DNA of 51,873 nt from Gemmatimonadota bacterium. GTDB taxonomy: Bacteria > Gemmatimonadota > Gemmatimonadetes > Gemmatimonadales > Gemmatimonadaceae. The stretch is taken from assembly GCA_003136975.1 (NCBI GenBank), contig PLEG01000388.1:507-52379 (forward strand), read 5' to 3'. Shown here in pieces: positions 6,868 through 49,044 of this stretch. The notes below the pieces were generated by a model. It was not told where the DNA came from, made no database searches, and saw only the letters and a list, made by a program, of their open reading frames with translations. How positions within the stretch are numbered: position 1 is the first letter of the stretch; every line of letters starts with the position of its first letter. The position numbers and the translations under genes are program-made.

Positions 6868-7323
6868 ATGGCTACAATGACACTTCCCGAGTTCACGCCT
6901 CAGATTCTGCGGGCGCCGGACGGACGATTGGTCGCGGCCGGAATACGGGGCTTCATCAACATCGCCAAAGCGTGGAAGCTAAACGCGGGCGACGTGGCCA
7001 AGCTGCTCGGAGTATCGCGAGCTACTTACTACCGCCTACAGCAGACCGCCGTGAAGGAACGCGAGGCAGCCGCGAGCGGCAAGCCAGAGATCCGCGCACA
7101 GCTTGCAGACCCTGCACTACAGGAACGTCTGTCGCTACTCGTAGGGATATACGGTGATCTCCAGAGCTACTACGCGAAGAATCGCGACTTCGGAGAACTC
7201 TGGGTGACACTCCCGAACAGCAACCGTGTATTTGGCGGCCATGCACCGATCGAGCTAATGTTGAGTGGGAGTGTCGTTGCGCTGTGGACAGTGCGGCGAT
7301 TTACCCAAAACATGCTCGGCTAG
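6868..7323 (+). CDS. Xre-type antitoxin with DUF2384 (MbcA/ParS-like) toxin-binding domain
   Basis: 151 aa. HTH segment AGDVAKLLGVSRATYYRLQQ, then C-terminal ERLSLLVGIYGDL..WVTLPN..FGGHAPIELMLSG typical of DUF2384. Directly followed by a RES gene. Confidence 0.75.
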   Translation: MATMTLPEFTPQILRAPDGRLVAAGIRGFINIAKAWKLNAGDVAKLLGVSRATYYRLQQTAVKEREAAASGKPEIRAQLADPALQERLSLLVGIYGDLQSYYAKNRDFGELWVTLPNSNRVFGGHAPIELMLSGSVVALWTVRRFTQNMLG

Positions 7324-7361
7324 CACGCTGGCATTCTTCCTGATTGCTGTCGGGTGCTTCT

Positions 7362-7373
7362 GCGCTGGTGCAT
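7362..7373 (+). repeat. 12-mer start-proximal motif copy (GCGCTGGTGCAT)
   Basis: 27 nt upstream of ATG 7401. Confidence 0.7.
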
Positions 7374-7400
7374 CCGGGAGAACACTACAACCACTCCCGT

Positions 7401-8120
7401 ATGCGCTCCTCAGACCCGGCTCGTGACTCATCTCCAGGCATACCAACCTCGTTGCTTTACTGGCCCGAGGCTGTTCGGATAGTCTCCGCTTTGCTGCCAC
7501 CGATTATGGAGTTCGAACGCGTTGCGGATCCCGATGATATGGTTGCCTTTGCGGAACTCGCAGCGCTTTCTAGCGCGGGTGGTGTTTCACCGTTCGGCAA
7601 TCTGAGCCTGGTCCCGAATGAGATGTGGATGCTTGGTGAGGGTGCCCGGTTTGCCATGCCTACTTTCACGTTTCCATCTGATGAAGGTTCACGTTTTGCT
7701 CCTCCTGGCGCGTACGGTGTGTTCTACGCGAGTCACGATCGCGAGACGGCGATCGCCGAATCTTCATACCACTTTCTTCGCCGGCAGAAAGAGTACACAA
7801 TGCAGGTTAAGGTCGAAGCCGACATGCGCGTTTTGGTGGCGAATATAGAAGCGACAGTCACAGACCTTCGTGGCCGTCGTGCGACGTTTCCGGCACTGTA
7901 CGATCTGCGCGACTATGAGTCAGCGCAAGCACTTGGCGTGAAGACTCGTGCAACTGGTGGGAGCGGAATCGCATACGACAGTGTGCGCCGTGCCGCTGGT
8001 GAATGCGTTGCTGTTTTTCATCCCGTGTGCATCCGTTCCTGCATCGACGTGGGGACGATCACCTACGAGTGGGACGGACGTCACTTGAATGTGACCTCGC
8101 CGCCGACTAGCGGACGCTGA
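7401..8120 (+). CDS. RES-domain toxin (NAD+-consuming, MbcT/ParT family)
   Basis: N-terminal AVRIVSALLPPIMEFERVADPDD, then GSRFAPPGAYGVFYASHDRETAIAES (R, E) and IAYDSVRRAAGECVAVFHP (S). The start could also be TTG 7344. ATG 7401 was chosen because the conserved N-terminal block lies downstream of it and the 12-mer upstream. Confidence 0.8.
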   Translation: MRSSDPARDSSPGIPTSLLYWPEAVRIVSALLPPIMEFERVADPDDMVAFAELAALSSAGGVSPFGNLSLVPNEMWMLGEGARFAMPTFTFPSDEGSRFAPPGAYGVFYASHDRETAIAESSYHFLRRQKEYTMQVKVEADMRVLVANIEATVTDLRGRRATFPALYDLRDYESAQALGVKTRATGGSGIAYDSVRRAAGECVAVFHPVCIRSCIDVGTITYEWDGRHLNVTSPPTSGR

Positions 8121-8171
8121 GCCGGTCTCGCGCGGGCGCACCTCAGACAATCACCAATTGTCGGGGGTTCC

Positions 8172-8699
8172 GTGGGCGCTTCAAATTCAACATTCGTTCG
8201 ACATACCACACTCCGGTCGTGGTCGCCCGTTTCGGAACAGCCACCCGCTGGTCCCTTTCGCGCCTCCTTTGTGATCGACGTGACCGCGTTGGAAGGACAT
8301 CCTACCGCGTTGCGACGTGCCGTCGGTGTAGCCATGCGCGAGTTGCTTACTCGAGGCACCGCGATCGCATTTGAGCGGAACGGTGCGATGCTCACCATCC
8401 GGCGCTTCGATGCTCGGGCGTCCTTCCATCTCCAGAACGAGACCGTCGCTGAATACCCCCTCGCTTTCGGTCTCGCTTTACGGGATACCGTTACCCGGAT
8501 GGTGGGGATGGACCCGGCAGAATTTCACAACATTGCTGTCACAAGCACAGAAGGCTCTCTCAGACATGTGGCTCCACTCCTCACGGGTGATTTTGGTGTT
8601 TGCATGACTCGTGTTCGGGCTGGGATTGCGACAGCTCGGCAGCCAGGTCGGCCCGTCCGGAGGGCGCTCGTCATACGACCACTGCCGTGCACGAGCTGA
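8172..8699 (+). CDS. hypothetical protein
   Basis: 175-aa ORF (GTG start), co-directional. No motif recognised. Confidence 0.4.
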   Translation: MGASNSTFVRHTTLRSWSPVSEQPPAGPFRASFVIDVTALEGHPTALRRAVGVAMRELLTRGTAIAFERNGAMLTIRRFDARASFHLQNETVAEYPLAFGLALRDTVTRMVGMDPAEFHNIAVTSTEGSLRHVAPLLTGDFGVCMTRVRAGIATARQPGRPVRRALVIRPLPCTS

Positions 8700-8703
8700 G
8701 GCG

Positions 8704-9231
8704 ATGAGTTCTGATAACGCCGTTGGGATCCACCCAATCCGTACCCTGGTAGCCCGGGCGATAGCGGAATCGGGCCCGTACGCCCATTTCACCCTTGCCG
8801 ACACCGTAGGGAACCTAGCGCCCGATAGTTCGGGCAGGCACGTTGTCTTGGCCGCATACAACGATCCGACGACTGGTGAAAAAAGCACCGTCCGCCTCGA
8901 TTACTGGACCGCTGGACTCCGGGTCCGGCCCTTCTGTTCCCACTGCCTATCGCGGACCTGTGGCCATGCCCTCAGAGTAGCGACAGTGTTTCGGGCCGCG
9001 ATGACCGGGGACTTGGCGACCCTCACCCGGTATCTCCGGACAGACGCCACCGATAGAGTAACGGATGCCGACCTTTCATCTCGGTGGCGGGATCACGAAC
9101 TGGCGCGGGAGGCTGAGATCCGGACGTCACGAGAAGCCGCGGTTGACGCCGAACGGAAGGAGGTGCAGGCGGCCAAGGCCAGCCAGATTGCCAGCGGCGC
9201 TGATCTTCCTCTGTTCGCCAGCACAGAGTAG
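8704..9231 (+). CDS. hypothetical protein with SWIM-like Cys/His cluster
   Basis: ATG 8704 comes just after the previous stop. FCSHCLSRTCGHALRV resembles a SWIM-type zinc finger (CxxC-x4-CxH rather than the exact CxC). Charged helical C-terminus. Confidence 0.45.
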   Translation: MSSDNAVGIHPIRTLVARAIAESGPYAHFTLADTVGNLAPDSSGRHVVLAAYNDPTTGEKSTVRLDYWTAGLRVRPFCSHCLSRTCGHALRVATVFRAAMTGDLATLTRYLRTDATDRVTDADLSSRWRDHELAREAEIRTSREAAVDAERKEVQAAKASQIASGADLPLFASTE

Positions 9232-21509: not shown

Positions 21510-21628
21510 AGTGATGTAAATGCAGGGGTTGGGCGTGTTGTACGGCGCAGGTGCAGTGGGCAGTATCCAATAGGACGCCCTTGTTTCGACGGCGTTCACC
21601 GACTGCTTCCCGCTTGAGGATTGTAGCA

Positions 21629-24155
21629 ATGACCACCACCATGCCCCAGATCAATACCAGCCATTTCAGCAATGTCGATATCGGTCTTCCTGCTGCCACG
21701 CTGTCTTCAAATGCACTCACCGTGCTCAAGAAGCGTTATCTCATGAAAGACGCTGAGGGTAACCCGACCGAGCGGCCCGAGGACATGTTCAGCCGCGTTG
21801 CAACAACCCTGGCTGACGTCGGTATTCGGTATGGCGAGTCGAGGAAGGACGTGCGGGATCTTGCACGCCGATTCTACGATCTGATGACCAGCGGGCGGTT
21901 CGAACCCAATTCCCCGACACTCATGAATGCAGGGCGGCCGCTAGGCCAGCTCTCGGCCTGCTTCGTTCTCCCGGTTGAGGACTCACTGTCCAACGGGCAC
22001 GACGGCATCTACGACTCGCTTCGTGCCTGCGCGCTGATTCACCAGAGCGGCGGAGGAACGGGGATGAGCTTCTCCAGACTCCGCCCGAAAGGCGCGACGG
22101 TCAGGAGCACTACTGGCGTGGCGAGCGGTCCTGTCAGCTTCATGGAGCTCTACGATGCTTCAACCAATGCGGTAAAGCAGGGTGGGGACGCGTCGCGGTG
22201 CCAACATGGGCGTCCTCCGGATCGATCATCCAGACGTGATGGAGTTCATCACGTGCAAGGAGGATCTGTCCAAGATCACGAATTTCAACATCTCACTCGC
22301 GATCACCGATGAGTTCATGCTCGCCGTGCGCGAGGGCACAGACTACGCGCTTTACGATCCCAAGTCGAAGGCCGAGGTCGGCCGCCTGGATGCGCGGACC
22401 GTATGGGAGAAGATGATCGATGGCGCATGGCGCACTGGTGAGCCTGGCTGCTTGTTCATCGACGAAGCGAATCGCTACAACCCAGTTCCACATCTCGGCG
22501 ATTACGAGGCGAGCAACCCGTGTGGCGAGCAGTTTTTGCTGCCGTACGACGTCTGTAATCTCGGATCGATCAACATCGGTGCGTATGTAATCGAGGGTGA
22601 ACTTGGCGTTCCAACATTGGATTGGGATGCTCTCCGTGAGGATATCCACGTCGCCGTCCACTTCCTCGATAACGTCATCGACGCAAACAAGTTCCCGCTC
22701 CCAGAGATCGAGACACTGGCGAAGCGGATCCGTCGCATCGGCCTTGGCCTGATGGGGTTCGCCGATGCACTGATCAAGCTCGGAATTCCCTACAACAGCA
22801 CTGAGGGAGTAGGGTTCGGTCGAGAGTTGCAGGCATTCATAGACGAGGAGGCCAAGATTGCGAGCGAAATCCTGGCTGAGACTCGTGGCACGTTCCCGGA
22901 GTGGGCGCGTTCTATATGGGGTCCGGACGAGACGTGCGCGCGTGACACAGACGGCGATCGCATCCGTCCGATGCGTAGGCTTCGCAACTGTAACGTGACG
23001 ACCGTAGCACCGACTGGGACGATCTCCATAATCGCAGGATGCTCATCGGGCATCGAGCCGCTGTTCGCTGTTGCGTTCATGCGCAATCAGGCCGACACAA
23101 AGATGGCCGACGTCAACGAAGATTTCGTCCGCGTTGCGAAGGAGGAAGGCTGGTACACTCCCGAGCTGATGGCTAGGATTGCCCGGGCAGGACATATTCA
23201 TTTCGCCGAAGTTCCGGAGAACTGGCAGCGTGTATTCGTCACTGCTCATGACATCACGCCTGAATGGCACGTGCGCATGCAGGCGGCGTTTCAGGAACGC
23301 TGTGATAGCTCGATTAGCAAGACTACAAATTTTCCCCGGTCAACTACACGCGACGACGTTCGCGCCATTTACGAACTCGCACACGAGCTAAAGTGCAAGG
23401 GCGTAACTGTCTACCGGGATGGTTCGCGAGAGAACCAAGTCCTCTCAACGGGCGCAACAACGCACGCTGAGGATAGCGGGACCGTTGATCCCAACACGGC
23501 AGAGTTGAAGGCAGCGTTGGCCGAGTCCAAGATTGAGGTCGAACGCCTTACGGGCAAACTGCTCGCTGCTGAGTCGGAGCACGCGGTCATCCGAAGCAAG
23601 CGTGAACGCCCAGGCTTGCTGCGTGGTACAACGATTCGGAAGGAGACGCCTCTTGGAACGATGTTCGTTAACATCACCGAGGACGATAAGGGCAACCCAT
23701 TCGAAGTCTTCATCAATCTCGGGAAGGCGGGTGGCGCAGCAATGGCTGATGCCGAAGCAATGGGACGTATGATTTCGCTCGCGTTGCGGTCAGGTATACC
23801 TCTGCGTGAGGTGCACCAGCAGCTCCGCGGTATCAGCTCTGACCGTGCGGTAGGATTCGGCCCGCACAAAGTGCTCTCTGTTCCCGACGCGATTGGAATC
23901 GCGATTGAGGAATGGCTTAAGTCGAGAGACGGCGTCCAGCAGGAACTCCTTACAGCAGATACTCCGAGCGGTGACGCTGCCGTAGTGGCCGCCCTCATAT
24001 CAGAGAAGGCCCCGGCCCTTTTCGATCATTTCGCCGAGCGGACTCGTAGTGACTATGGACGCCCGTGTCCAGATTGCTTGCTACCAAACTCTGTCATCGA
24101 GAGTTCTGGGTGTGAGCATTGCACCGCACCGGGTTGCGGCTACTCGGCGTGTTAA
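21629..24155 (+). pseudogene. nrdJ: class II (adenosylcobalamin-dependent) ribonucleotide reductase NrdJ, interrupted by a 1-nt frameshift
   Basis: Two ORFs (21629-22312 and 22182-24155) together give a colinear NrdJ. They join as ..NAVKQGG | [21 protein letters not shown].. across the G4 run at 22184-22187. Other hallmark segments are NSPTLMNAG, SACFVL, NPCGEQ, TVAPTGT and the C-terminal Cys zinc ribbon. This may be a sequencing indel. Confidence 0.85.
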
Positions 24156-29847: not shown

Positions 29848-30049
29848 GCGGCGCCAAAGCCGATACTTGTAGGTTACAGGCCGCAACGTATTGGATAGAG
29901 AAGTACCACAAATCGTAGGATCGACAACTCGTTTTCACTCGCGGCAATCCCAGCAGGTGTAAGCCAGCCTGGGGCAGGGCCGTCTCTTGTATAGGTACCT
30001 GATTTCCACTGCACGCTATCGGTGTGCACCAGTCTGAGAGTTGTTTCCA

Positions 30050-31843
30050 ATGGCGAGATCACCATCGCGTCGAACGTCAAAGTTTTCCTTATCTCCTGAG
30101 GAACGCGAGCAGCGTCTCAACGAGGCGTCAAATCGTATGGAGGAAGCAGTTAAGTCTTTGACGACGAGTGATCAATTCCGCGCGGCGCTACGTGTGTCGG
30201 CTTCGTTCCCAGAGTATTCGTTCGGCAACACGTTGATGATCTGGACTCAGAACCCGGAAGCAAGCATGGTGTGCGGGTTCGAAGCTTGGAAGAAACTTGG
30301 ACGGCACGTGAAGAAGGGTGGAAAAGCAATCCGCATCTTTGTTCCGATGACATTCCGAAATAAGCTTGTAGCCGAGAGCTCTGCTTCGGGATCGGACGAA
30401 ACGCCAGGTGAGGTGAGTAGTGAGTCGAGGAGAGTAGCATTCCGTCTCGGCAACGTGTTTGATATTTCGTCGACGGAAGGGGAACCCATCCTTGAACTCC
30501 CGCGGCCCAAGATTCTCGAGGGAGACAGTCCTCTCATCCGGGCGGCGATAGCGGGCCTCTGCGATTTCAACGCCACTCGCGGAGTACCGGTGTCGTTCAC
30601 CGACATCGCCGGCATGTCAAAGGATGTCAATGGGTTCTGGCACCCGATAAAGCGTCGGATTGAAGTGCGTGAATCCTTGTCTCCCCTGCAGCGCCTAAAA
30701 ACGCTCGCACATGAAACGGCTCACGCCCGACTCCATCTCGTGCCGCTGCACTCTGACCAAGAGCGAAGAACAGCGGAGCTCGAAGCTGAAGCATCCTCGT
30801 ACCTTGTGCTCGACTCCCTTGGTATTGATGGTGCTGAGGAATACTCGTTTCCATACCTAGCTGGTTACTCAACAACTCCAGAAAGCATATTGGGAGTTGG
30901 AGAACGGGCCCGTAAAGCAGCCGCGGTCATCATCGACTCGGCTTATTGCGCGATCAATCAGCAGCTCGGGACAGAATTCGTACGCGGAGTACCGCTCGAC
31001 GCGTTGGAGGCACGAGCAGATGCGGCGCGTGAGTCGAAAGCTGCGAGGGTGGCAGGGAAGAACTCACGCGACCATTATCGGCGTGTGTCTGATGCTGGAG
31101 AGACCGCGTCAGTGCAAGCCAAGGCAACCGGCCTCTTTATCGCGATAGAGGGAGTTGATGGGATAGGCAAATCAACCGTCCTACCAATCCTTGCAGAGAA
31201 GATTGAGAAAGTGCTGGGTCGAAAAGTTGTCTGCGTCCGGGAACCTGGTGGTACGCCGATCGGAGATGAAATCCGTACGGCACTCAAAGCCGGCGTAGGC
31301 TCGAGCGACCCCCATCACCAGCTTGCGATGTTCTGTACCGCACGTAAGGCGCTCATCGAGCAGGTCGTAAGGCCCGAGATTCAGGCCGGTAGCGTCGTGA
31401 TCGCTGATCGGCATAGTCTGAGTACGTACATCTACCAGGGCGGTTCTGGGGTGTCAGAGCGGCAGATTGCCGATGCTAATGCGGCTGCTGTGGGTGGAAC
31501 ACGTCCGGACGCTACCGTGGTCCTGTGGGCGACGCGCGAGGATCTCATCGCCCGCCGGCTCGCGAGGAACGCCGCGGCCGATGCCTTTGACGAGGTTACT
31601 GAGGATGGAACGATCAGAGCGCTCGAGCGGCAGGCTCGGTATGTAGCTCTAGCGAATCGAACACCTGGCGCCATGACAGTCGCAGTTCAGGCTACCCCGG
31701 AGGCGACGGCATCCGCAGTGGTAGAGCGATTGGCTCACGTCCTCGCTATAGCCCGTGGTGAGGCAGCTCCACAAGTTGAGACCAAGCCTCAATCGGTTCA
31801 GGAGGAAGACTCGGAGGAGGTCATCGCAGCCGCTGTTGCATAA
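30050..31843 (+). CDS. ArdC-like antirestriction protein (ssDNA-binding N-domain + HExxH metalloprotease) fused to thymidylate kinase
   Basis: N-domain EYSFGNTLMIWTQNP..GFEAWKKLGRHVKKGGKAIRIFVP. HETAH at nt 30710-30724. C-terminal Tmk: FIAIEGVDGIGKST (P-loop from nt 31151), REPGGTPIGDEIR, ADRHSLSTYIYQG, PDATVVL. The ORF opens at TTG 30041. Confidence 0.7.
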   Translation: MARSPSRRTSKFSLSPEEREQRLNEASNRMEEAVKSLTTSDQFRAALRVSASFPEYSFGNTLMIWTQNPEASMVCGFEAWKKLGRHVKKGGKAIRIFVPMTFRNKLVAESSASGSDETPGEVSSESRRVAFRLGNVFDISSTEGEPILELPRPKILEGDSPLIRAAIAGLCDFNATRGVPVSFTDIAGMSKDVNGFWHPIKRRIEVRESLSPLQRLKTLAHETAHARLHLVPLHSDQERRTAELEAEASSYLVLDSLGIDGAEEYSFPYLAGYSTTPESILGVGERARKAAAVIIDSAYCAINQQLGTEFVRGVPLDALEARADAARESKAARVAGKNSRDHYRRVSDAGETASVQAKATGLFIAIEGVDGIGKSTVLPILAEKIEKVLGRKVVCVREPGGTPIGDEIRTALKAGVGSSDPHHQLAMFCTARKALIEQVVRPEIQAGSVVIADRHSLSTYIYQGGSGVSERQIADANAAAVGGTRPDATVVLWATREDLIARRLARNAAADAFDEVTEDGTIRALERQARYVALANRTPGAMTVAVQATPEATASAVVERLAHVLAIARGEAAPQVETKPQSVQEEDSEEVIAAAVA

Positions 31844-35633: not shown

Positions 35634-37016
35634 ATGCTCTCACATCAGAATCCGATCACTAGGATTGTCAGTCCCGCAGGCGACGGGCCTACAAGGTCAT
35701 TCTCCGAACGTGCGGAGGATCTGCTCGACCGGTTGCTAATTGCGGATTACGATACTGGCACGAGTACGGCATGGGCTGGTGCAGCGCCCTGGCACCTGTG
35801 TTCGGCGTTCAAGCCGACATTCAATCAGCTCGCGTTCGATCTTTTTCCCTCGCTCGATCCCAGCGACTTGAGCTGCGATCCCGATCACGCCGTCTTCATA
35901 AAGAGTGGGTTCAGCGTTCGCTTGATCGAGGGGAAAGGGAAAGCCACTGTGCTGGACGAATTTGTATCGCGTCATCATCACTCCCTCCGGGGTGGCGGGA
36001 TGAGTGGCCGAGCTTACGGGCTGTATGATCCAACCGCCGCTCTCGTTGGTCTCATTATCTTCGCGAGACCGACGAATGCAAAGACTGCTGCAGGGATGCA
36101 GGTCGTAGAAATAGGCGACGACCTACTCTCGCCAACCGAGCTGGCGCATGTTACGCACGGAGAAGGCGAGACATTGGATTGCACACGACTTTGTGTTGCT
36201 GATGTGACGCCATCTGGGTTCATTTTAGGTACTGGAGCAGAGTCGTTCCTGTTTGCAGCGGGGCTGCGTGATCTCGCAAGTCGAAACCGGTCTCTCTGGA
36301 GAGCGACCCGCATGGTAGAGAAGGGGATTCCGCTTACGCCGGACACGCGCCGGATCCTTGCCAGCGTTTCAAGTTGTAAATGTGTTCGCTCTTTTGCGAC
36401 TGTCGGGACGCGAGGGGTCTCCTATGCCGCGTCTGGGCTTTTCTATTGCGGCAGAGGGCGGTCCGAACAGGAATCAGTTGGCAGACGATCGGGGGAAGTT
36501 TGCGGACGCAGGTCGCTCTCGAAGCTCGAAAGCCTGCACTGTCACGGACATGACCATCAAGTGCTCCGCGCTGTTTGGGAGGGCGGCGAAGGCTGCGTGA
36601 CCGCTTTCGACTCGAGAGGAAACGTGATCACATCAATCGACCTATCGCCGATTCGCGCGATGGTAGGTGATGATCTCACACCTCTCGTCCGTCAGCGCGC
36701 ACTCAAGCGTGCGTACCGCGAACTCCGAGCTGATGCAGAGCGCGGAATTGCGCGAGTGGATATTACGTGGAGTCTCAGTGCGGATAGGGCGGGCTATGTA
36801 TTGCGGCATGCGAGCCCGAAGCATCGGTACGTCGGCTACTTGGGCGCCCCGTACTACGTCGTAGAGATGGCGCGGCGGTCAAAGTATCTCCGGGACAGTA
36901 TCCTGGCTGCCGAGCGTGCTTGGTTCGCGCCTGAGCGACGCTGGCCGCGTGGGATTGGCTTCGGTTGGAAGCGCCCCCCACAGAGACTTGGGATTCCTCC
37001 GATGCCGAGATCCTAG
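35634..37016 (+). CDS. hypothetical protein; N-terminal half resembles the HRHH-motif GNAT-fold family of phages/MGEs (Mom-like?)
   Basis: 460 aa. SRHHHSLRGGGMSGRAYGLYDPTAALVGLIIFARPTN .. LDCTRLCV resembles the recalled pattern HRHH-P-x-G..F..G....LVGV..GRP...EVTR-C. This is a low-certainty recall match. Confidence 0.4.
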   Translation: MLSHQNPITRIVSPAGDGPTRSFSERAEDLLDRLLIADYDTGTSTAWAGAAPWHLCSAFKPTFNQLAFDLFPSLDPSDLSCDPDHAVFIKSGFSVRLIEGKGKATVLDEFVSRHHHSLRGGGMSGRAYGLYDPTAALVGLIIFARPTNAKTAAGMQVVEIGDDLLSPTELAHVTHGEGETLDCTRLCVADVTPSGFILGTGAESFLFAAGLRDLASRNRSLWRATRMVEKGIPLTPDTRRILASVSSCKCVRSFATVGTRGVSYAASGLFYCGRGRSEQESVGRRSGEVCGRRSLSKLESLHCHGHDHQVLRAVWEGGEGCVTAFDSRGNVITSIDLSPIRAMVGDDLTPLVRQRALKRAYRELRADAERGIARVDITWSLSADRAGYVLRHASPKHRYVGYLGAPYYVVEMARRSKYLRDSILAAERAWFAPERRWPRGIGFGWKRPPQRLGIPPMPRS

Positions 37017-37264
37017 AAACGCAGGCGTTCCCGACCAATGTAGACAGTTTGCTCCTGAAGCGTGGGCGGGGAAGCGCTGTTAGAGGCTAAGTGTCGCACT
37101 CACAGGAGCTTACACGCGGCATAGGGCGAATGAAGTGAGCGTATTTCACGCCTGACGGGCGGGATTGCGGCCCCAGCGGCCTCGATCGAAGATGTTAGCA
37201 TAGACGCGATTAGCCGCTGTCCTTTTTCTTGATTTATGTAAGAAGGTAGGCCACTATTTCCTAC

Positions 37265-37963
37265 ATGAGAGCACATCCGTTACCAAACAGCACGATGCAG
37301 CTGGAGTTTCATTCAACGGTTTTGTTAAGAACTCTTAGCCTTCGGGCTCGGATGCTAGCGTCAGCAGCAAGCATTCTGGCTCTTGCGGTCACATCTACTG
37401 CGATGGGCCAGGCTGTTGGCACAAGCCAACATGCGAACCAGAGTGGTGCATTGCGCCACAAGGCGAGTGTAGACACGGCCGGCTTACTGATAACCGGCGC
37501 AATGTGGCATCCAGGTACGGATCAAGCCCCGATACCATTCGCTGGAAGAACCATATTCGCTGTTCCTTATGCGAAGGAGCGTGAAGTGTTAGGGGCGTAC
37601 TGTCGTTTGGACGAACAGCTGCATTCAGAGCTGATCGACTCGGCTCGCACAGCGGGGCGGCAGGCTTACGGTGCAGCAAGTATCCGCGGAGGTCAGCGAC
37701 TTCAACGTATGGCCGAGGCTATACTCTCAGATGCGTCTCTCGAGCACGCAACCACCGGAATCGACGGGCACTACACGCTTCGCATACCGACCAACCAGGT
37801 GGTAGTGGTTATGGCCATTGGTGTCTACAACATCGAACTTGGCAATGTTGGCGGCTTTCCATTGACATATGTCTGGGCCATGCCGATGTCGAGCATCACC
37901 GACCACGGCAAGAAGGAACTGAACCTGAATTCCGAGACACAACTCGATCCAGTGTGCAAATAG
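37265..37963 (+). CDS. exported hypothetical protein
   Basis: Signal-like MLASAASILALAVTSTAMGQA (ATG 37352 is a likely true start). GIDGHYTLRIP resembles a carboxypeptidase-regulatory-like beta-sandwich. Confidence 0.45.
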   Translation: MRAHPLPNSTMQLEFHSTVLLRTLSLRARMLASAASILALAVTSTAMGQAVGTSQHANQSGALRHKASVDTAGLLITGAMWHPGTDQAPIPFAGRTIFAVPYAKEREVLGAYCRLDEQLHSELIDSARTAGRQAYGAASIRGGQRLQRMAEAILSDASLEHATTGIDGHYTLRIPTNQVVVVMAIGVYNIELGNVGGFPLTYVWAMPMSSITDHGKKELNLNSETQLDPVCK

Positions 37964-38061
37964 CCTGGCTCGGGTAGCAACGCAAGCGGAAGCCACAGGG
38001 GCGGAAACAGGATCTAGCGAGACAATTGGACACCCAAGTAGGCATCACCGACCAGCTAGCA

Positions 38062-38105
38062 ACGAAAGCCCTGCATGAAGTTACGATGCAGGGCTTTCGT
38101 TTATC
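38062..38105. terminator. strong rho-independent terminator
   Basis: Perfect 15-bp stem ACGAAAGCCCTGCAT / ATGCAGGGCTTTCGT (38062-38076 / 38086-38100) with a 9-nt loop, followed by TTAT. Confidence 0.7.
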
Positions 38106-38259
38106 AGTCGGGATGGACGGATTTGTACTGGCGACCTTCTGCTCCCGCTGATCGAGAGGCTATCTCGACACGCTAACCATCGCGTGAACAATGCCAGGTA
38201 ACTCCCGCAGGCGCATTGGAATGTGTTCACATCATTCCGTTCATCATCTGTGAGGATGT

Positions 38260-39339
38260 ATGACCACAAGAAACGAGTTACCAGCAGCGCCGAGGGAATT
38301 GTCGTTCGGCGTCAACGAGACCCGCTTGCTGGGCGAAGTCGGCCTTTTCTTCAGCTCCGCAACCGCCGCATTCGCCGAGTGTGTGCAGAACGCTTACCGC
38401 GCCGGCGCCACAACGCTACGTGTGACCGCTGATCCATCAGCCCGGAAAGTCGTATTCCGAGATAACGGTTGTGGCTTGAGCGACCCAAGCAAGCTGCTGC
38501 AAATGGCGGAAAGTGGCTGGGACACAGCAGACGTGAAGCACGCCGCGGGTTTGGGCTCGCTCGCGCTGTTCGCGATCGCTACAGATGTTGAGATTATCTC
38601 GATGCCTGATGACGGTAGTGCCCCGTGGCGCATACACTTCACGGACGCTGCTCTTCGTCACGAGGCTCCGGTTGAGTGCTGGGATGCTATTTCACCATCC
38701 CTCTGGGCTGAGCACGGTGACGAGGCTCATGGTGTCGAGATTCGCGCAACACTCCGTGAGTCCGCGACATTCCCGACAATGACAGCCGAGGACAGTGGAA
38801 AGTGGCGGCATCGATTCCCTCTGGCGATCACGATCGAGGTCGCTGATTCCACCATTCCAGGCGGGGTTCTCCGTAGCGTTCACACCGTTGGGCCTCGTGA
38901 GGGCTATTCGATTGAAACATCGGCTGGGGCGCTACACGTTACCTCGCCGAACAAGCAGAGTGGCCACTTTTCTACTGCGATCTTCGTTGAATGGGAGCAT
39001 CGGCGTACCGGGACAGTCTCGATACCGGACGAGGTTCTTTCCGAAGAATTGTGCGTCGGTGTTCCTAACGCGGTTCGCGAGGAATTGATCAGGCGCCTTC
39101 GCCGTGACGTTGAGCTCGTCTGGGTTGTATCACCAAATGTGGCGGTCGAGGCAAAACTTCCCGATCGCGAAACGCTGGTGCGTGATGAAGGATTCAAGCG
39201 GGCGATGAGTGTCCTCGCAGCAACGTTGCTCGCGGAGTTTGATGTTGAAAACCTCCGCAAAACGTTCGTGGAGTTCACTAAGGGCGAAGCGATCGTCCAG
39301 CTTGACGATATTGAGCAGCTTGCGCGTGGTGTCAAATAG
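38260..39339 (+). CDS. GHKL/Bergerat-fold ATPase (HATPase_c_3 / MORC-sacsin-like); ORF ends at a TAG followed by 57 more in-frame sense codons
   Basis: GAGGA RBS. N-box FAECVQNAYRAGAT, G1 VFRDNGCGLSD, G2 AAGLGSLALFAIA. Frame 1 stays open from TAG 39337-39339 to TGA 39511-39513. Confidence 0.6.
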   Translation: MTTRNELPAAPRELSFGVNETRLLGEVGLFFSSATAAFAECVQNAYRAGATTLRVTADPSARKVVFRDNGCGLSDPSKLLQMAESGWDTADVKHAAGLGSLALFAIATDVEIISMPDDGSAPWRIHFTDAALRHEAPVECWDAISPSLWAEHGDEAHGVEIRATLRESATFPTMTAEDSGKWRHRFPLAITIEVADSTIPGGVLRSVHTVGPREGYSIETSAGALHVTSPNKQSGHFSTAIFVEWEHRRTGTVSIPDEVLSEELCVGVPNAVREELIRRLRRDVELVWVVSPNVAVEAKLPDRETLVRDEGFKRAMSVLAATLLAEFDVENLRKTFVEFTKGEAIVQLDDIEQLARGVK

Positions 39340-39531
39340 TTCCGACCCCGCTTCAAGGGAATCCCGCTTACCGCTTTCGACCCGATTCCGTTCCTTGCGA
39401 TAGCGGGGTATGGCATTCCCGAGGGTGGAAACGATCTGTCGGATGTGGATTGCAGCCTCATTCTAGACGGTGATGGTTCAGACTTCGAAGTGTCGTACAA
39501 TACGACGCGGTGACTCGTCAAGCCTCTGTAC

Positions 39532-40275
39532 GTGACACCATTCGCTCAACTTGCCGTTGATGCCGGGATTCCGGCGATCGGCCCAGCAAAAGCGAAGAAT
39601 CACGATGGACTAATTCCACTCAGCATCGTCGCCCGTGGCGAGTCGCTCTTTGTGGAGGAGATGCAGGCGATCTTCGCTCGTGGTCTTCAGTTCGTAACTC
39701 CCGATGGTGTAAAGGTCGCATCGGTGCCCGTAGCTGCGTTTGAGTCAGCCTGGGAAGAGCTCGATGATACCGACGTGGAGTTGCCCGTTTGGTTGAAGAA
39801 TCGAGAGCCAATTCAGGTAATCTTTGCCATGCCCGGAGATGACCCGACACCACTCCCGGATGCTGTTATGGCGTACGTCCTGGAATCCCAAGCGTTCAAC
39901 AACTACGCGACGATCATGGCCGGAGAGCGCGATGGTGGAGAATTCGCGCTCGACATTTGGGACTACACCGAGTCGAACAGTTCGGATTCCAACGACTCGT
40001 GGAGTGAGACGCGTCTCGCCGCTGATGCACGTCGGCTGGTAGCCAATGCGGTAGGTGGAAAGCACGTACTGCAGGCCGAACGGGTTGCCGTCCTGGCAGA
40101 ACTGAGCGACATGATGGATGTGACCTTCAACTACGGCGACCGCGTTGACGCGCTGGTTCAGCGCGGGAAGACTGCGGGGATTGAGCCGAAGCTGCTCGCG
40201 CGGATACTCAGATCCCGCAACACGCTCCGAGATGCACTCAAGGCAATCCGCCTTCAGCAATCCGATGCGCGGTAG
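39532..40275 (+). CDS. hypothetical protein, partner of the GHKL ATPase
   Basis: 247 aa, GTG start 18 nt after TGA 39511-39513. No motif recognised. Confidence 0.45.
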   Translation: MTPFAQLAVDAGIPAIGPAKAKNHDGLIPLSIVARGESLFVEEMQAIFARGLQFVTPDGVKVASVPVAAFESAWEELDDTDVELPVWLKNREPIQVIFAMPGDDPTPLPDAVMAYVLESQAFNNYATIMAGERDGGEFALDIWDYTESNSSDSNDSWSETRLAADARRLVANAVGGKHVLQAERVAVLAELSDMMDVTFNYGDRVDALVQRGKTAGIEPKLLARILRSRNTLRDALKAIRLQQSDAR

Positions 40276-40288
40276 TAGCAAAGGCAAC

Positions 40289-40317
40289 GGGGCGGCATCC
40301 TGAATCGATGTCGCCCC
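40289..40317. terminator. bidirectional terminator hairpin between convergent genes
   Basis: GGGGCGGCAT / ATGTCGCCCC (40289-40298 / 40308-40317), 1 mismatch, 9-nt loop. Confidence 0.55.
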
Positions 40318-45506: not shown

Positions 45507-45858
45507 GAAATCAGGATTACGGCCCGCGCTTACTCTGCAGGTGAGAGTCGCATATGAGTCTGATGGAACGTCATCCAAGGCTGAATGCGATAACCAGGCG
45601 CTGATGGCGGGCAGCCATGCAGCCGCTCTAGCCGAATGGGCACGGATATTCGCGAGAGTCTTGATCCGCGCTGATCGTGCTGGCCAGCTAGCGGCTCATC
45701 CGAAGCGGAATGATTTCGCTGCTGCGAGCCCTATGAGCTCCATACCAGACGCGAATGATGTTGGCTGTAGTCGGCGCATCCGGGTGCGAACTTCACATCG
45801 TCAGCCGTATTGCGCATTGGAAGGCGCGAAAGCCACTAGTCGAGGAGAATTCCAATGA
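45490..45858 (+). CDS. hypothetical protein
   Basis: GGAGGAGG RBS precedes ATG 45490. 122 aa. No resolvase motifs. Confidence 0.3.
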   Translation: MKASDKKSGLRPALTLQVRVAYESDGTSSKAECDNQALMAGSHAAALAEWARIFARVLIRADRAGQLAAHPKRNDFAAASPMSSIPDANDVGCSRRIRVRTSHRQPYCALEGAKATSRGEFQ

Positions 45859-47132
45859 GACAGCGAACCAAACGTCGTGAGGGGAAGACAACTAATCCAC
45901 AGAGCAATGCAGCGCGCGGATCGTACGCTGCAGCCGCACGTGGTCACTGGCAGGGGGTGGCTCCGGTCGGCTATCGGCGACTTGCTATGAAGGACGGACA
46001 CGCATCCCAAATGCTTGAGAATGGAATTGCCAAACCGAAGGGGTACTATTGTATCCTCACGCCAGCGAATCAGAGTGAGCAGGAACTTGTGCGTTCTCTA
46101 TTCGGCCATTATCTCGAGGTCGGCGCGACGATCGAGTCGACCCTTCGCTATGCGAACGATCTCCGAGCAGGACCTGTGTCCGCTAGGGACGACGTCATGC
46201 TCAGAGATGATCTTGTATGGAGTGAGCCGGCGATCCGTAACATCCTTATGAATCCCGTCTACGTGGGAACGGTCTGTTATGGCCGGAAGCCTCGGCAGGG
46301 TAGAGGCGGAGGTCGCGGGTTTGCCGTTAACAGCACACCTACCATAACTCTTGGGGCGCACACGGCGCTCGTGTCCAAGGCACTCTTCGAGCGTGTGCAA
46401 GGCAAGCTTCAGCAGAATCGGAGCTACCAATGCGGTGTCCGGACGGCCTACGCCTTCAGTGGCGTCGTGACGTGTGCGAGTTGTGGTTCATCCATGGTTG
46501 GTGGTGGTGGGATGTCGTTGCTGTCTCAAGGAAGGCGCAGCGATGCTGCATATCGCTGCGCTGGCGGGGCCCGGAGGCCCCGCGGCGGCCACCGAGGCCG
46601 GACGGCTAATTGTCGCCCGCCGCGTACTACGGTAAGGCGGCAGCATCTTGAGGGGCCAATCATCGATGCGGTGGCGCGCACACTTGGCCGGCCGGACGTT
46701 GTTGCGGCTGTAAGGACTGCACTTGAATGTGAGTTGGCGTCATCGACCGCGGATGAGGTCGGCGCAAGTTTAAAGCGTATGGCTCGGCTCCTCGCCAGCA
46801 TCGAGCGCCAGCAGGCCAACATCATCCGCGCGATTGCGAACGACATTGTTAGCGGGGAGGATGCCAAGACCGAACTCACGCATCTTGGCGAGCGGCACGG
46901 CGCTGCACAGCGTCGGTTAGCAGAGATCTCTCTACTGCATGCGGGTGATGAAATCCATCATTGTGGTGCTGATCAGTTATCGAGGTGGACGCAAGACATC
47001 TTGGCGCTCACAAATCGTTTAGACGGCGAGCTAGTTCGCGCAGTGATAGCGCCTTGGATTGCATCAGCCGTATTCGATAAGCGTGATCGATCTATTTCGA
47101 TACTGGTCCGTTCATCGCCGGTTATGGGGTAA
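45855..47132 (+). CDS. large serine recombinase C-terminal portion (recombinase domain + zinc ribbon + coiled coil) lacking the catalytic resolvase domain
   Basis: It begins about at GVAPVGYRR. Also present: LVRSLFGHYLE, WSEPAIRNILMNPVYVGT, and the zinc ribbon FSGVVTCASCGSSMVGG..YRCAG. All three upstream frames contain stops, and no S-R catalytic motif was seen. Confidence 0.6.
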   Translation: MRQRTKRREGKTTNPQSNAARGSYAAAARGHWQGVAPVGYRRLAMKDGHASQMLENGIAKPKGYYCILTPANQSEQELVRSLFGHYLEVGATIESTLRYANDLRAGPVSARDDVMLRDDLVWSEPAIRNILMNPVYVGTVCYGRKPRQGRGGGRGFAVNSTPTITLGAHTALVSKALFERVQGKLQQNRSYQCGVRTAYAFSGVVTCASCGSSMVGGGGMSLLSQGRRSDAAYRCAGGARRPRGGHRGRTANCRPPRTTVRRQHLEGPIIDAVARTLGRPDVVAAVRTALECELASSTADEVGASLKRMARLLASIERQQANIIRAIANDIVSGEDAKTELTHLGERHGAAQRRLAEISLLHAGDEIHHCGADQLSRWTQDILALTNRLDGELVRAVIAPWIASAVFDKRDRSISILVRSSPVMG

Positions 47133-47382: not shown

Positions 47383-49044
47383 ATGCCGGACTGTTTGCCG
47401 CCTCGCGTCTATCTCGGTTCGTCTGCCCCCGTAATTTTCGGACCGCGGAGATCTGAGCAGGCGTCGTATGCGCTTATGGAGGCTGCAGAACTGATTCCGT
47501 CCCATCGCTGGACTACGCTTCAGCCAGATGCTCGGTATCCTTCAGCGCTCCAGGGGCGGGCCTATTCCGGCAGGTTTGGCCGTACCGCCGCGGAGATGCT
47601 CGCGACTCAGATTCTCGAGCCGATGTACGTGGTCGACCCCACGCAATTCCCTTGGGGTGGGCCGCCAATCTGTACGAGCCTTGGCCATGTAATCGCCGGG
47701 AACCATCGGGCGATTCTAATCCAGCGGGCTGCGTTGCGTAGCGATGACCGTCACGTCAAAGCATACGCACGGTATCGGGAGGACTTGTTTGCAACAGCGC
47801 GTCTCACGGGGGTGAGTACCGCTGTACTGCTTACACTCAACGCACCGATTCTTGTGCGGATCCTCGATGAGTCCAAATGGACGTCTATTGATGCAAGTAG
47901 CCGGGACAACCGGCTGCGCCGGCTTAATGTGCTCTCCGACCGACCACCGACGAAGGCATATGACGTTCTATCGGATGGGTTCGCTATGGCGACGTCGCTT
48001 CTAGATGTCCAAGAGCACAACTCCGGTGATGCGATAGGCACGCTTATAGATTTGCTTCAAGGTTCGTCGCTCGACGCAATTCTGCGAGGTGCTGGTGGTT
48101 ATAAACTCGTCGGTGAGCTGACTAGCCTTGGCGCTCTAACCGTTGCGGAACATCCTGCGCTCATTAACGCGAGCGCGGAACGGCTTTCGGCAGGCGGCCG
48201 ATCTCGTATTACATGGATGGTGAGAGCCCTTGTCCTTGATGATCGTGGTGTACTTGCTTCAGCGTCCGACGCCGTTCTCAGCAAGCTAGACGGGTGCTCG
48301 CTCACGCTCCTGGCTTCCTTAGGGTGCGTGTTTCGCGATGCGATGCGGCAACGAATCTGCGAGGCAATCGATCTGTTGGCGGCGGCTAAATCCGAGGGAC
48401 TCAGCGTCCATTCGTATGCTTCGACTGAGTCAATGCTCGAACATCTTCCGGGGACTCCCTCGCGCCTCCTTGCTTGCTGTATTGAAGGGCTCCGCGCGCG
48501 CGATCTAGTTGAGCTTGTCAATCGCTGGGTTGCGACACTTGGGCCGAGCGATTTCGGCAAGGATGCGGAACCGATGTTAGCGGGGTTTGGGAACTGCGTT
48601 GCACGAGGTAAGGAAGCCGAGCTTGCTGTCTTAGAGGAGGGCGCCGCTCACGCTGTTCAGATGCTGTCCAAGCGAGTGGGGCGGCCAAATGTTCCACCGG
48701 ATGAGTATCTGTCGCCAACAGAGTGGGCGCAGCTAGAACCGTTGATCCCGGAGCCGACTGCTCGTCGTTCAGGTGCGCACTTGGGTGGGAGGCCGGTACT
48801 TAGCAATAAATCGCTTGCTGCAGGGTTGGTATGCGCGTTTGAGATGGGAGCCACACCTGACACGATCTTCGCCACGTGGCGTAGACTGCCAAGTGTTTGG
48901 GTCGAACGAAAGCTTGTGTGTCGCCGGACGACGCTGCAGCGACGTCTCAAACAACTCGATTCGGCGCTTGGTGGTCGTGCCGCACTTCTCGGAGCTGTGG
49001 CGGAAATTGCTGTGGTGCGGAGGCGTGCGCTCATTGGTATTTAG
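47383..49044 (+). CDS. ParB/Srx-fold N-terminal domain protein with C-terminal DUF4096-like (IS5-type) HTH
   Basis: N-terminus AELIPSH..YPSALQGR..LEPMYVVDP..GGPPIC..GHVIAGNHRAILIQRA resembles the ParB-like domain of MGE polyvalent proteins. C-terminus LSPTEWAQLEPLIPEP..GGRPVLSNKSLAAGLV resembles the L-T-D-x-x-W-x-x-I-E-P-L-L-P..GRP HTH of IS5-family transposases. Confidence 0.5.
   Translation: MPDCLPPRVYLGSSAPVIFGPRRSEQASYALMEAAELIPSHRWTTLQPDARYPSALQGRAYSGRFGRTAAEMLATQILEPMYVVDPTQFPWGGPPICTSLGHVIAGNHRAILIQRAALRSDDRHVKAYARYREDLFATARLTGVSTAVLLTLNAPILVRILDESKWTSIDASSRDNRLRRLNVLSDRPPTKAYDVLSDGFAMATSLLDVQEHNSGDAIGTLIDLLQGSSLDAILRGAGGYKLVGELTSLGALTVAEHPALINASAERLSAGGRSRITWMVRALVLDDRGVLASASDAVLSKLDGCSLTLLASLGCVFRDAMRQRICEAIDLLAAAKSEGLSVHSYASTESMLEHLPGTPSRLLACCIEGLRARDLVELVNRWVATLGPSDFGKDAEPMLAGFGNCVARGKEAELAVLEEGAAHAVQMLSKRVGRPNVPPDEYLSPTEWAQLEPLIPEPTARRSGAHLGGRPVLSNKSLAAGLVCAFEMGATPDTIFATWRRLPSVWVERKLVCRRTTLQRRLKQLDSALGGRAALLGAVAEIAVVRRRALIGI

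Follow-up and report, generated by a model that had tools for sequence, protein, structure and literature searches.

The DNA stretch analysed in this work (51,873 nucleotides, hereafter the window) very probably carries, at positions 38260-40275, a single gene for a mobile-element Hsp90-like ATPase of about 671 amino acids, which was interrupted by two nonsense mutations and became a pseudogene very recently. An earlier sequence-only reading had described this locus as a two-gene cassette composed of a GHKL ATPase and a separate partner or effector. Our data did not agree with this organisation: 'gene 1', the following 57-codon stretch, the 18-nt 'spacer' and 'gene 2' form one reading frame, the translation of which yields 671 codons with TAG 39337 and TGA 39511 as its only internal stops, and the two presumed products correspond to one polypeptide in every homologue. 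The locus is a single gene, and what had been read as its partner corresponds to the last 253 residues of the encoded protein. Features of the gene and of its flanks are the following.

38061-38101, plus strand: upstream hairpin, perfect 16-bp arms (38061-38076 and 38086-38101) and 9-nt loop
38206-38219, plus strand: degenerate copy CGCAGGCGCATTGG of the element-wide upstream motif CGCGGGTGCAT, 54 nt 5' of the ATG
38252-38256, plus strand: Shine-Dalgarno-like GAGGA, 4 nt 5' of the ATG (GAGG invariant in 6/6 loci)
38260-40275, plus strand: whole ancestral gene, Hsp90-like GHKL ATPase, 671 codons with 2 nonsense codons (from translation and homologues)
38260-39336, plus strand: segment 1, codons 1-359, GHKL N-domain and conserved middle domain
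38377-38391, plus strand: N box E40-N44, in segment 1
38461-38475, plus strand: G1 box D68-G72, in segment 1
38548-38556, plus strand: G2 box G97-G99, in segment 1
39154-39171, plus strand: KLPDRE loop, nearly invariant, in segment 1
39337-39339, plus strand: first in-frame stop, TAG, codon 360 (from homologue alignment)
39340-39510, plus strand: segment 2, codons 361-417, 57 codons alignable to homologues
39511-39513, plus strand: second in-frame stop, TGA, codon 418 (from homologue alignment)
39514-40275, plus strand: segment 3, codons 419-671 and natural TAG stop, beta-rich domain and long-helix C-terminal domain
40289-40317, no strand assigned: downstream hairpin, 11-bp GC-rich stem (40289-40299 and 40307-40317; folding, z -4.6)

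ORF 38260-39339 encodes 359 aa and, as had been noted earlier, its TAG (39337-39339) is followed by 57 open, protein-like codons up to TGA 39511-39513. The claim that these 57 codons contain no canonical start held for ATG, which is absent, but GTG triplets are found in frame at 39445 and 39490. Likewise, an ORF of 247 aa does begin 18 nt after the TGA, at GTG 39532, but it lies in the same frame and equals segment 3 minus its first six codons; the 'spacer' itself encodes LVKPLY, which falls in the alignment on the MVKPxY conserved in the homologues, where P422 and Y424 are invariant. The ancestral length of the protein is about 671 aa, and the former estimate of about 417 aa arose from taking TGA 39511, the second stop, for the true end of the gene.

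Five homologues (669-678 aa, 51-58% identity, 98-100% coverage of the joined frame) are single uninterrupted proteins, and sense codons occupy both stop sites in 5/5 of these close relatives. The residue at codon 360 is Q (CAA or CAG), P or T, in accordance with the previous suspicion that the TAG arose secondarily by a nonsense change and does not mark the natural end, and that at codon 418 is Y, R (CGG) or A. TAG 39337 and TGA 39511 can be reached by a single C-to-T change from CAG and CGA, respectively. A word-index protein search of the stop region for closer intact relatives returned only the window ORF and a 613-nt fragment ending short of the stops; the ancestral codons at both sites were therefore deduced.

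A profile search among 1.8 billion representative proteins (E up to 1e-3) recovered 1366 relatives, of which the distant full-length ones are single proteins of ~510-700 aa. Among the shorter relatives, those that were traced comprised the ORF of the window itself, one copy with a frameshift and two fragments at contig ends. One family member (L020) appears in the gene calls as a pair of ORFs (308 and 335 aa), the split resulting from an overlapping frameshift, and no clean two-gene arrangement was encountered among the relatives examined. The expected co-conservation of a gene pair elsewhere was not observed, both parts being one protein, so that no pair exists. Scans of GTDB species-representative genomes and of IMG/VR gave no relatives, and a metagenome scan gave one locus, the contig carrying homologue P0003.

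Decay was not apparent beyond the stops. The segments that follow them share 42-52% identity with homologues, compared with 37-48% among intact homologues over the same columns; segment 2 alone (57 codons) reaches 42-51%, similar to the homologues among themselves, and no frameshifts have accumulated 3' of the stops in the ATPase frame. Among syntenic genes compared with five related loci, internal stops were confined to the ATPase gene: ArdC-Tmk, ORFs of 452 and 187 aa, the Mom-like gene, NlpC/P60, the pilins, an ORF of 313 aa and SSB all aligned stop-free.

The double-stop allele was reproducible. Among contigs of 50 kb or longer, 11 carry the exact 359-aa product as a called protein; the exact 247-aa product is called in 15 contigs, and the five sequencing samples that were traced include JGI 3300037104, Logan SRR7151680 and SRR11593519, and two WOOD18-1 biosamples. 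In four loci the DNA is identical across both stops, the sole SNP lying elsewhere in the gene (V266I, L007), and no other allele was seen in samples containing the strain. Reassignment of a stop codon was considered and ruled out, since all three stops are in normal use (TAG 11, TAA 9 and TGA 6 among window terminators, a tally including two contested ORFs) and no tRNA genes were found in the window. The stops are thus premature relative to intact orthologues, reproducible in DNA and unaccompanied by recoding machinery, as is expected of a pseudogene.

The assignment of gene 1 to the Bergerat/GHKL ATPases, already proposed from its motifs, was borne out. Segment 1 matches Pfam HATPase_c_3 with 27.6 bits (cutoff 25), the N, G1 and G2 boxes of the family occur in the right order, and residues E40, N44, D68, G70, G72, G97 and G99 are invariant in the homologue alignment; across 66 diverse relatives, conservation in the GHKL motif columns is 90% or higher, up to full invariance. 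A further nearly invariant residue, R303 (window numbering), lies in the middle-domain loop KLPDRE, which we take to resemble the Hsp90 catalytic loop NLSRE. Outside the N-terminal GHKL domain, nothing was recognised by Pfam, NCBIfam, PHROGs or PADLOC in the window pieces, in the 58%-identical homologue P0001 or in the 66 relatives. The C-terminal half varies across the family, and many relatives align only at profile positions 14-340.

A structure was predicted with AlphaFold2 from an alignment of 66 sequences, for P0001 in place of the window protein (pLDDT 88.4, pTM 0.82). Comparison of this model with PDB by Foldseek gave Hsp90, HtpG, GRP94 or TRAP1 as all of the top 50 matches (E 1e-12 to 1e-10), most of them covering 410-450 columns and a few the full length (TM 0.38-0.47), and long C-terminal helices were predicted. 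At the sequence level, alignment of the family profile to E. coli HtpG by hhalign (97.4% probability, E 1.6e-11) covered 136 columns and stopped at the N-domain, the middle and C-terminal parts not being alignable. Among solved structures, HtpG/Hsp90 N-domains were the best sequence matches of this profile (9e-9 to 1e-6), ahead of MutL (2e-5); a PDB search with a shallow profile returned nothing, and Pfam PF00183 (HSP90) matched neither the 66 relatives nor the window pieces. From the fold and the genomic context we infer that the intact family protein may be an Hsp90-like ATP clamp. In the P0001 model, the position of the TAG (residue 362 of P0001) falls in a lower-confidence linker past the middle domain, and codons 361-417 are predicted to belong to a folded third domain.

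The placement of the locus within mobile-element DNA was supported. The ATPase gene lies in a plasmid- or ICE-like element close to ArdC, a Mom-like gene, SSB and methylases, and family hosts are soil bacteria including Gemmatimonadota, Deinococcus, sphingomonads, Burkholderia and Methylomonas, in which the genes are found on plasmids and ICE-like elements. The upstream Mom-like gene was considered as a conserved functional partner, but the two genes adjoin each other in the close clade alone; the neighbours of distant relatives are unrelated, and the Mom-like gene was therefore rejected as evidence of a two-component system. No other partner gene was conserved beyond this clade either. Elsewhere in the window, the ribonucleotide reductase gene displays a +1 frameshift in the G-run GGTGGGG, a typical error site.

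Expression signals were found only at the 5' end of the long frame. The GAGGA preceding ATG 38260 has no counterpart before GTG 39532, where no Shine-Dalgarno sequence was detected. The motif copy CGCAGGCGCATTGG keeps its position 5' of the ATPase gene in 6/6 loci, and the core CGCGGGTGCAT is enriched in the window; the longer form GGYGCATTGGRR, tested for repetition in the window, showed no enrichment. The copy 5' of the ATPase gene is presumed to be a promoter or an operator.

Hairpins are present on both sides of the locus, as previously reported, but their interpretation as insulation of a cassette did not survive comparison with related loci. The upstream hairpin (dG -31.8 kcal/mol, z -6.0, with A-tract and U-tract flanks) lies 3' of ORF 37265-37963 (ORF232), which is missing from all homologous loci, and folding of three of these loci revealed nothing comparable. 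There, the ATPase gene is located ~85-130 nt after the Mom-like gene, with other small genes in between in one case (L005). The upstream hairpin probably serves the inserted ORF as its intrinsic terminator, and the ancestral ATPase locus did not include it. Its downstream counterpart is situated between two convergent genes, the ATPase gene and NlpC/P60 (40348-40977, minus strand), and probably serves both as a shared terminator. Stems at the same position 3' of the ATPase gene are strong and perfect in two related loci (L001 and L002) and weaker but GC-rich in a third (z -2.0, L004); therefore, this 'insulation' is ordinary.

The following course of events would be consistent with these observations. 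Two point mutations, each a single C-to-T transition, would have turned codon 360 into TAG and codon 418 into TGA. Because both stops are in frame, translation from the conserved ATG with its Shine-Dalgarno sequence should end after 359 residues, and the product would comprise the N and middle domains without the C-terminal half. The other 311 codons would be an untranslated remnant, partly rescued by gene callers as the 247-aa GTG ORF. In its intact form, the protein may have acted as an ATP-driven, dimeric Hsp90-type clamp in element establishment or host conflict, and the truncated product would presumably be inactive because the C-terminus thought to mediate dimerisation is missing, although the N-plus-middle fragment could retain some activity. 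Two stops without any frameshift or excess divergence are slightly unusual for neutral decay, and this pattern would also fit a selected knock-out or a continued use of the pieces.

Continued use could take the form of a functional split, in which the ATPase is reduced to a 359-aa N-plus-middle protein, and a C-terminal protein of 247 aa, translated on its own, joins it again or acts alone. Both pieces are indeed open, and their divergence does not exceed that among intact homologues, the TAG sits in the linker where the conserved N-M module gives way to the variable C-terminal half, L020 is likewise called as two ORFs, and only this allele was seen in several samples. However, we regard such a split as unlikely: GTG 39532 lacks the Shine-Dalgarno sequence that is conserved at the ATG, a break at the TAG leaves 57 conserved codons of the modelled third domain unexpressed, the L020 case is an overlapping frameshift and no relative examined has two clean genes, and the missing extra divergence is explained equally well by a recent event. 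Leakiness of both stops, which would yield some full-length protein and possibly a low dose of a costly one, is less probable still. The frame is open for 311 codons 3' of the first stop, with no visible decay, and the second stop is a TGA with C as the next base, a context reported to terminate weakly in E. coli, so that this site might allow low-level read-through. Nevertheless, two different stop codons would need suppression, no suppressor tRNA is encoded in the window, TAG is the commonest genuine terminator in the element, with TAG-T also terminating genes at 4347, 14382 and 40275, and the joint yield of two independent leaky stops would be very small. Since no homologue carries a stop at either site, there is also no hint of a conserved programmed event.

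That the real genome carries an intact gene, the stops being sequencing or assembly artefacts, has an almost negligible probability. The frameshift in ribonucleotide reductase, at a typical error site, would speak for this reading, but the two stops are substitutions outside homopolymers, and assemblies from several independent runs and sources contain identical DNA with both of them, which argues against an assembly error and against the sequencing error formerly suspected at the TAG. A two-gene conflict or defence system, with a paraMORC-like GHKL ATPase, now damaged, and an effector, is just as implausible. It would accord with the HATPase_c_3 match, this Pfam family being common to MORC and paraMORC proteins, and with a mobile element rich in conflict genes. 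However, what was taken for the 'effector' forms the C-terminus of the ATPase itself in every homologue, neighbours vary among distant relatives, and the top 50 fold matches among solved structures all belong to the Hsp90 family and not to MORC, MutL or topoisomerase VI. The candidacy as a defence system was also checked with PADLOC: gene 1 gave marginal matches limited to the N-domain (REase_II, E 0.0025; MzaB, E 0.0087), no match was obtained for gene 2, the 57-aa stretch or P0001, and 8/66 relatives showed a weak N-domain match to TmtA. No PADLOC defence-system model fits either piece, P0001 or the close clade.

The interpretation as a recent pseudogene bears on annotation, as the two called genes of 359 and 247 aa, both represented in public protein collections, ought to be joined into a single entry marked as a pseudogene, and the cluster of 247-aa 'hypothetical proteins' is an artefact of the split. 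It also draws attention to an unnamed and fairly large family, the 1366 members of which are annotated at most as 'ATP-binding protein'; our literature search on GHKL/Hsp90-like proteins in conjugative elements or leading regions yielded no description of it. The copy in the window is broken and unusable as it stands. A bolder proposal, which we consider rather doubtful, is that intact members form an unrecognised class of Hsp90-like ATP clamps, which conjugative plasmids and ICEs carry in their establishment or anti-defence regions next to ArdC, Mom-like, SSB and methylase genes, with a role in counter-defence or host reprogramming that would make them the conjugative-element counterpart of phage rIIA; the double knock-out would then have been selected because the factor was costly or host-toxic after the element had settled in the lineage. 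If an intact member does aid element establishment or counter host defence, the family would represent a new type of player in plasmid-host conflicts.

Several known systems share features with this family. MORC/paraMORC, MutL and BbrUII/HgiDII GHKL ATPases, known from restriction and from defence systems, have an N-domain of the HATPase_c_3 type in common with it. Weak N-terminal matches to NCBIfam BbrUII/HgiDII were found in 44/66 relatives (best E 3.5e-9, for a cutoff of 550 bits), as were others to sacsin and MutL, but the MORC, MutL and BbrUII matches span only ~100 N-terminal residues and remain far below family cutoffs, and no nuclease or S5-type transducer was detected in the family.

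Phage T4 rIIA is the 'protector from prophage-induced early lysis'. Like the family, it is a protein of ~700 aa encoded by a mobile genome, with a GHKL ATPase at the N-terminus and a C-terminal part that varies, and RIIA proteins were the top matches of the P0001 model in a library of predicted viral structures (E down to 1.4e-13). By sequence, the family profile matched T4 rIIA in the N-domain alone (hhalign, 13% probability, E 0.002), and the rIIA PHROG matched none of the 66 relatives, in which only phrog_6203, of unknown function, was hit. The similarity is at the level of fold only, and to predicted RIIA models; no rIIB-like partner was seen. rIIA itself is regarded in PMC7824862 as a poorly understood counter-defence factor.

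Hsp90/HtpG resembles the family in length (~620-680 aa) and three-part layout, and its N-domain is the closest by sequence among solved structures, with the E-x-x-x-N, D-x-G-x-G and G-x-G motifs in common. The P0001 model matches the fold of its N and middle domains and, in few cases, that of the full length. In contrast, the lid region is shorter in the family, and Hsp90/HtpG is a housekeeping gene whereas the members of this family are encoded on plasmids and ICE-like elements.

Translation of 38260-40275 (plus strand) gave one frame of 671 codons with just two internal stops. The sequence-only reading had described a HATPase_c_3-type GHKL ATPase gene, interrupted by an in-frame TAG and followed, after a short open tail and a spacer, by a separate partner gene. 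The features involved are all present:

38260-39339, plus strand: 359-aa ORF matching Pfam HATPase_c_3 (27.6 bits, cutoff 25), with N, G1 and G2 boxes
39337, plus strand: first internal stop, TAG, with 57 open codons beyond it, up to a TGA
39511, plus strand: second internal stop, the TGA ending the 57-codon stretch
39532 (start), plus strand: GTG ORF of 247 aa, 18 nt past the TGA

Both ORFs, the 57-codon tail and the 18-nt 'spacer' all lie in the same frame. The natural TAG (40273-40275) is adjoined by a second in-frame TAG at 40276-40278.

Against a collection of 5.8 billion proteins, the joined translation, with X at both stops, retrieved five proteins of 669-678 aa at 98-100% query coverage and 51-58% identity. 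One bears a hypothetical-protein label naming a metagenome-assembled genome of Gemmatimonadaceae as its origin, and all five align across both stop positions without interruption. At the TAG column, just 5' of a conserved (L/F)RxR(F/L) motif, three homologues carry CAA or CAG (Gln), and at the TGA column TAC or TAT, CGG and GCG are found. The six 'spacer' codons (LVKPLY) match the conserved MVKPxY of the homologues, in which P422 and Y424 are invariant. A two-gene cassette was thus rejected, as the supposed second gene shares the frame of the first and the homologues are single polypeptides; the view of TAG as a secondary nonsense codon was borne out, since homologues read through it with sense codons. 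Single C-to-T transitions would suffice for both changes (CAG to TAG, CGA to TGA); we infer these ancestral codons, because searches yielded no closer intact relative. The window copy is very probably one double-nonsense pseudogene, from an unnamed family of Hsp90-like ATPases that mobile elements carry.

When 1.84 billion representative proteins were searched with a profile HMM, this family grew to 1366 relatives with E no higher than 1e-3, of which 168 had E no higher than 1e-10; the full-length ones are single proteins of roughly 510-700 aa. Short relatives, tallied for traced cases alone, were the window's own 247-aa ORF (P0006), two contig-end fragments and one disrupted copy. The latter, on a Logan contig (L020, 984-2859), is called as overlapping ORFs of 308 and 335 aa, an overlap indicative of a frameshift towards the end of the conserved N-middle module, close to the window's first-stop site. 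In many relatives the alignment is confined to profile positions 14-340, so that the conserved core consists of the N-terminal and middle parts, and the C-terminal half varies. The first stop falls exactly at the boundary between the two.

Sequencing or assembly error was rejected as the origin of the stops, because the same allele occurs on many contigs and its DNA is identical in four loci. Gene calls identical to the 359-aa product occur on 11 contigs (each at least 50 kb long), and calls identical to the 247-aa product on 15; among the five sequencing samples traced are JGI 3300037104, Logan SRR7151680 and SRR11593519, and two WOOD18-1 biosamples. At these four loci both stops and their surroundings match the window, the only deviations being one SNP elsewhere in the gene (G39055A, V266I, in L007) and a run of Ns (L008). 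Recoding was likewise rejected: no tRNA genes were found in the window, and all three stop codons end other genes there (TAG 11, TAA 9, TGA 6, a tally including the two contested ORFs), TAG-T contexts occurring among ordinary gene ends.

Less probable readings are a functional split of the gene into working pieces and a low level of read-through at the stops. GAGGA lies four nt 5' of the ATG at 38260, its GAGG invariant in six of six loci, and nothing comparable precedes the GTG at 39532; the downstream piece thus displays no sequence sign of independent expression. Post-stop segments share 42-52% identity with the homologues, against 37-48% among the intact homologues over the same columns, and no frameshifts have accumulated in them. 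Such preservation indicates a recent inactivation event. Among syntenic genes compared with five related loci, internal stops were confined to the ATPase gene. It was concluded that this gene has, by all appearances, been recently inactivated, and that its disrupted allele is the sole one seen in the sampled population.

The surroundings had been read as insulating the cassette with terminators. Both hairpins exist:

38061-38076 and 38086-38101: upstream hairpin, perfect 16-bp inverted repeat (-31.8 kcal/mol, z -6.0 against shuffles)
40289-40299 and 40307-40317: downstream hairpin, 11-bp GC-rich stem (z -4.6)

However, the first belongs to an apparent insertion, and the second is probably a shared terminator of an ordinary kind. 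Between the Mom-like and ATPase genes, some 1.1 kb of sequence (37017-38259) has no counterpart in related loci and so appears to be a small insertion. It holds ORF 37265-37963 (232 aa, hydrophobic N-terminus, no family match), with the upstream hairpin located 3' of it. In four homologue loci (L001, L002, L004 and L006) the corresponding spacer is only roughly 85-130 nt; in L005, other small genes separate the two genes. Because the ORF is missing from all related loci and the three of those spacers that were folded had no comparable hairpin, the upstream hairpin is part of the insertion. The downstream one lies between two convergent genes (ATPase and NlpC/P60), and the same position holds strong perfect stems of 18-20 bp in L001 and L002 and a weaker GC-rich stem in L004 (z -2.0).

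Upstream of the ATPase gene, CGCAGGCGCATTGG (38206) is kept in all related loci. It is a degenerate copy of CGCGGGTGCAT, presumably the 'array motif' of the sequence-only reading; at least twelve of the window's plus-strand genes have CGCGGGTGCAT in front of them. With up to 3 mismatches, CGCGGGTGCATTGG had 20 matches against 8.4 expected, a number reached in 0 of 100 shuffles. Plus-strand copies of the motif CGC[G/A/T]GGTGCAT were located at 1070, 2180, 3041, 5300, 7363, 13677, 16194, 21546, 24576, 31883, 35615 and 38206, mostly about 30-110 nt 5' of likely gene starts and with an exact core in six copies. Its likely role is that of a promoter or operator specific to the element.

The placement of the locus in mobile-element DNA held, the window being plasmid- or ICE-like. 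It encodes a Prok-E2_D and ThiF (E1-like) pair (354-1900), DnaN, an Xre/RES toxin-antitoxin pair, an amidoligase, a ribonucleotide reductase, an N6/N4 methylase, an RPA-type replication initiator, an ArdC-M78-thymidylate kinase fusion, an HNH endonuclease, the Mom-like protein, the ATPase with its convergent NlpC/P60 gene, two pilin-like genes, SSB, a truncated serine recombinase and a ddrB-ParB protein. The order ArdC-Tmk, 450-aa ORF, 185-aa ORF, Mom-like, ATPase, NlpC/P60 (reverse strand), pilins, SSB is common to the window and the five close-homologue loci, as far as each contig extends. In all five distinct homologue contigs the ATPase gene has the Mom-like gene upstream, and in four the two are immediate neighbours. 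The 460-aa Mom-like product (35634-37016) resembles Mom-type DNA-modification proteins in two separate, weak matches (Pfam Mom, 22.3 bits, below the 27.1 cutoff; PHROG 1384, E 1e-6) and may be a DNA-modification enzyme that counters restriction and has a large additional region.

Several other genes of the element were unusual. The 600-aa fusion at 30041-31843 joins an ArdC N-terminal domain, an M78/IrrE-like peptidase and a thymidylate kinase, with 69% identity in L002. A +1 frameshift within a G-run (GGTGGGG, junction 22184-22187) divides the ribonucleotide reductase gene (21551-24155) inside the conserved KQGG(T/M)RRGANMG motif, and reflects either a second pseudogene or a homopolymer sequencing error. 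A related element (L012) has this gene intact (851 aa), and a Prok-E2_D and ThiF pair (7281-8949) just upstream of a distant ATPase relative, P0008. The large serine recombinase ORF (45855-47132) retains Recombinase and zinc-ribbon domains and looks like a 5'-truncated remnant, the N-terminal catalytic resolvase domain being missing from it and from the three forward frames just upstream. The ddrB-like ParB domain protein (47383-49044) has a C-terminal match, below the Pfam cutoff, to DUF4096 (IS4/IS5 transposase N-terminus), which may be a fusion or the scar of an insertion-sequence fragment.

Distant relatives, labelled 'ATP-binding protein' or 'hypothetical protein', are carried by large plasmids from Deinococcus, sphingomonads, Burkholderia, Methylomonas and others. 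Their neighbours are unrelated (one examined plasmid has ssb, topA and uvrD nearby), and no conserved partner gene was found among the neighbourhoods examined; family members behave like accessory genes that stand alone on mobile elements. PADLOC returned no meaningful match for the window pieces, the close homologue P0001 or relatives, and PHROGs a single one, phrog_6203, whose function is not annotated. The GHKL ATPase, the secondary nonsense codon and the mobile setting stood; the two-gene cassette and its candidacy as a conflict system did not, there being no recognisable defence system. Low interest attaches to the window copy, and moderate interest to the family, as an accessory function, so far uncharacterised, on plasmids and ICEs.

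Sequence libraries recognised the N-terminal GHKL domain alone, with no match for the remaining ~500 residues among 66 relatives; HATPase_c_3 was detected in 60 of these, and BbrUII/HgiDII, sacsin and MutL models matched the N-terminus weakly. An AlphaFold2 model of P0001, built on the 66-sequence alignment, was confident (pLDDT 88.4, pTM 0.82). On this model the TAG corresponds to residue 362, in a lower-confidence linker after the middle domain, and the TGA to residue 420, in a strand of the next beta-rich domain; the 359-aa product would lack this domain and the long C-terminal helices.

In Foldseek searches of the PDB, the best 50 matches of the model were all Hsp90-family chaperones (HtpG, Hsp90-beta, Hsc82, GRP94, TRAP1; E 1e-12 to 1e-10). 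Most alignments spanned 410-450 columns, i.e. the N and middle domains, and a few covered the whole chain (TM 0.38-0.47). The middle domain contains a KLPDRE loop, nearly invariant, that is reminiscent of the Hsp90 catalytic-loop motif. Against a viral predicted-structure library, phage RIIA proteins ranked on top, followed by viral Hsp90 and topoisomerase II; T4 rIIA matched the family profile with only 13% probability, and the rIIA likeness is therefore at fold level only. Profile and PDB sequence comparisons agreed with the Hsp90 fold: E. coli HtpG matched the family profile with 97.4% probability (E 1.6e-11, N-domain alone), and the best PDB sequence matches were HtpG and Hsp90 N-domains, ahead of MutL.
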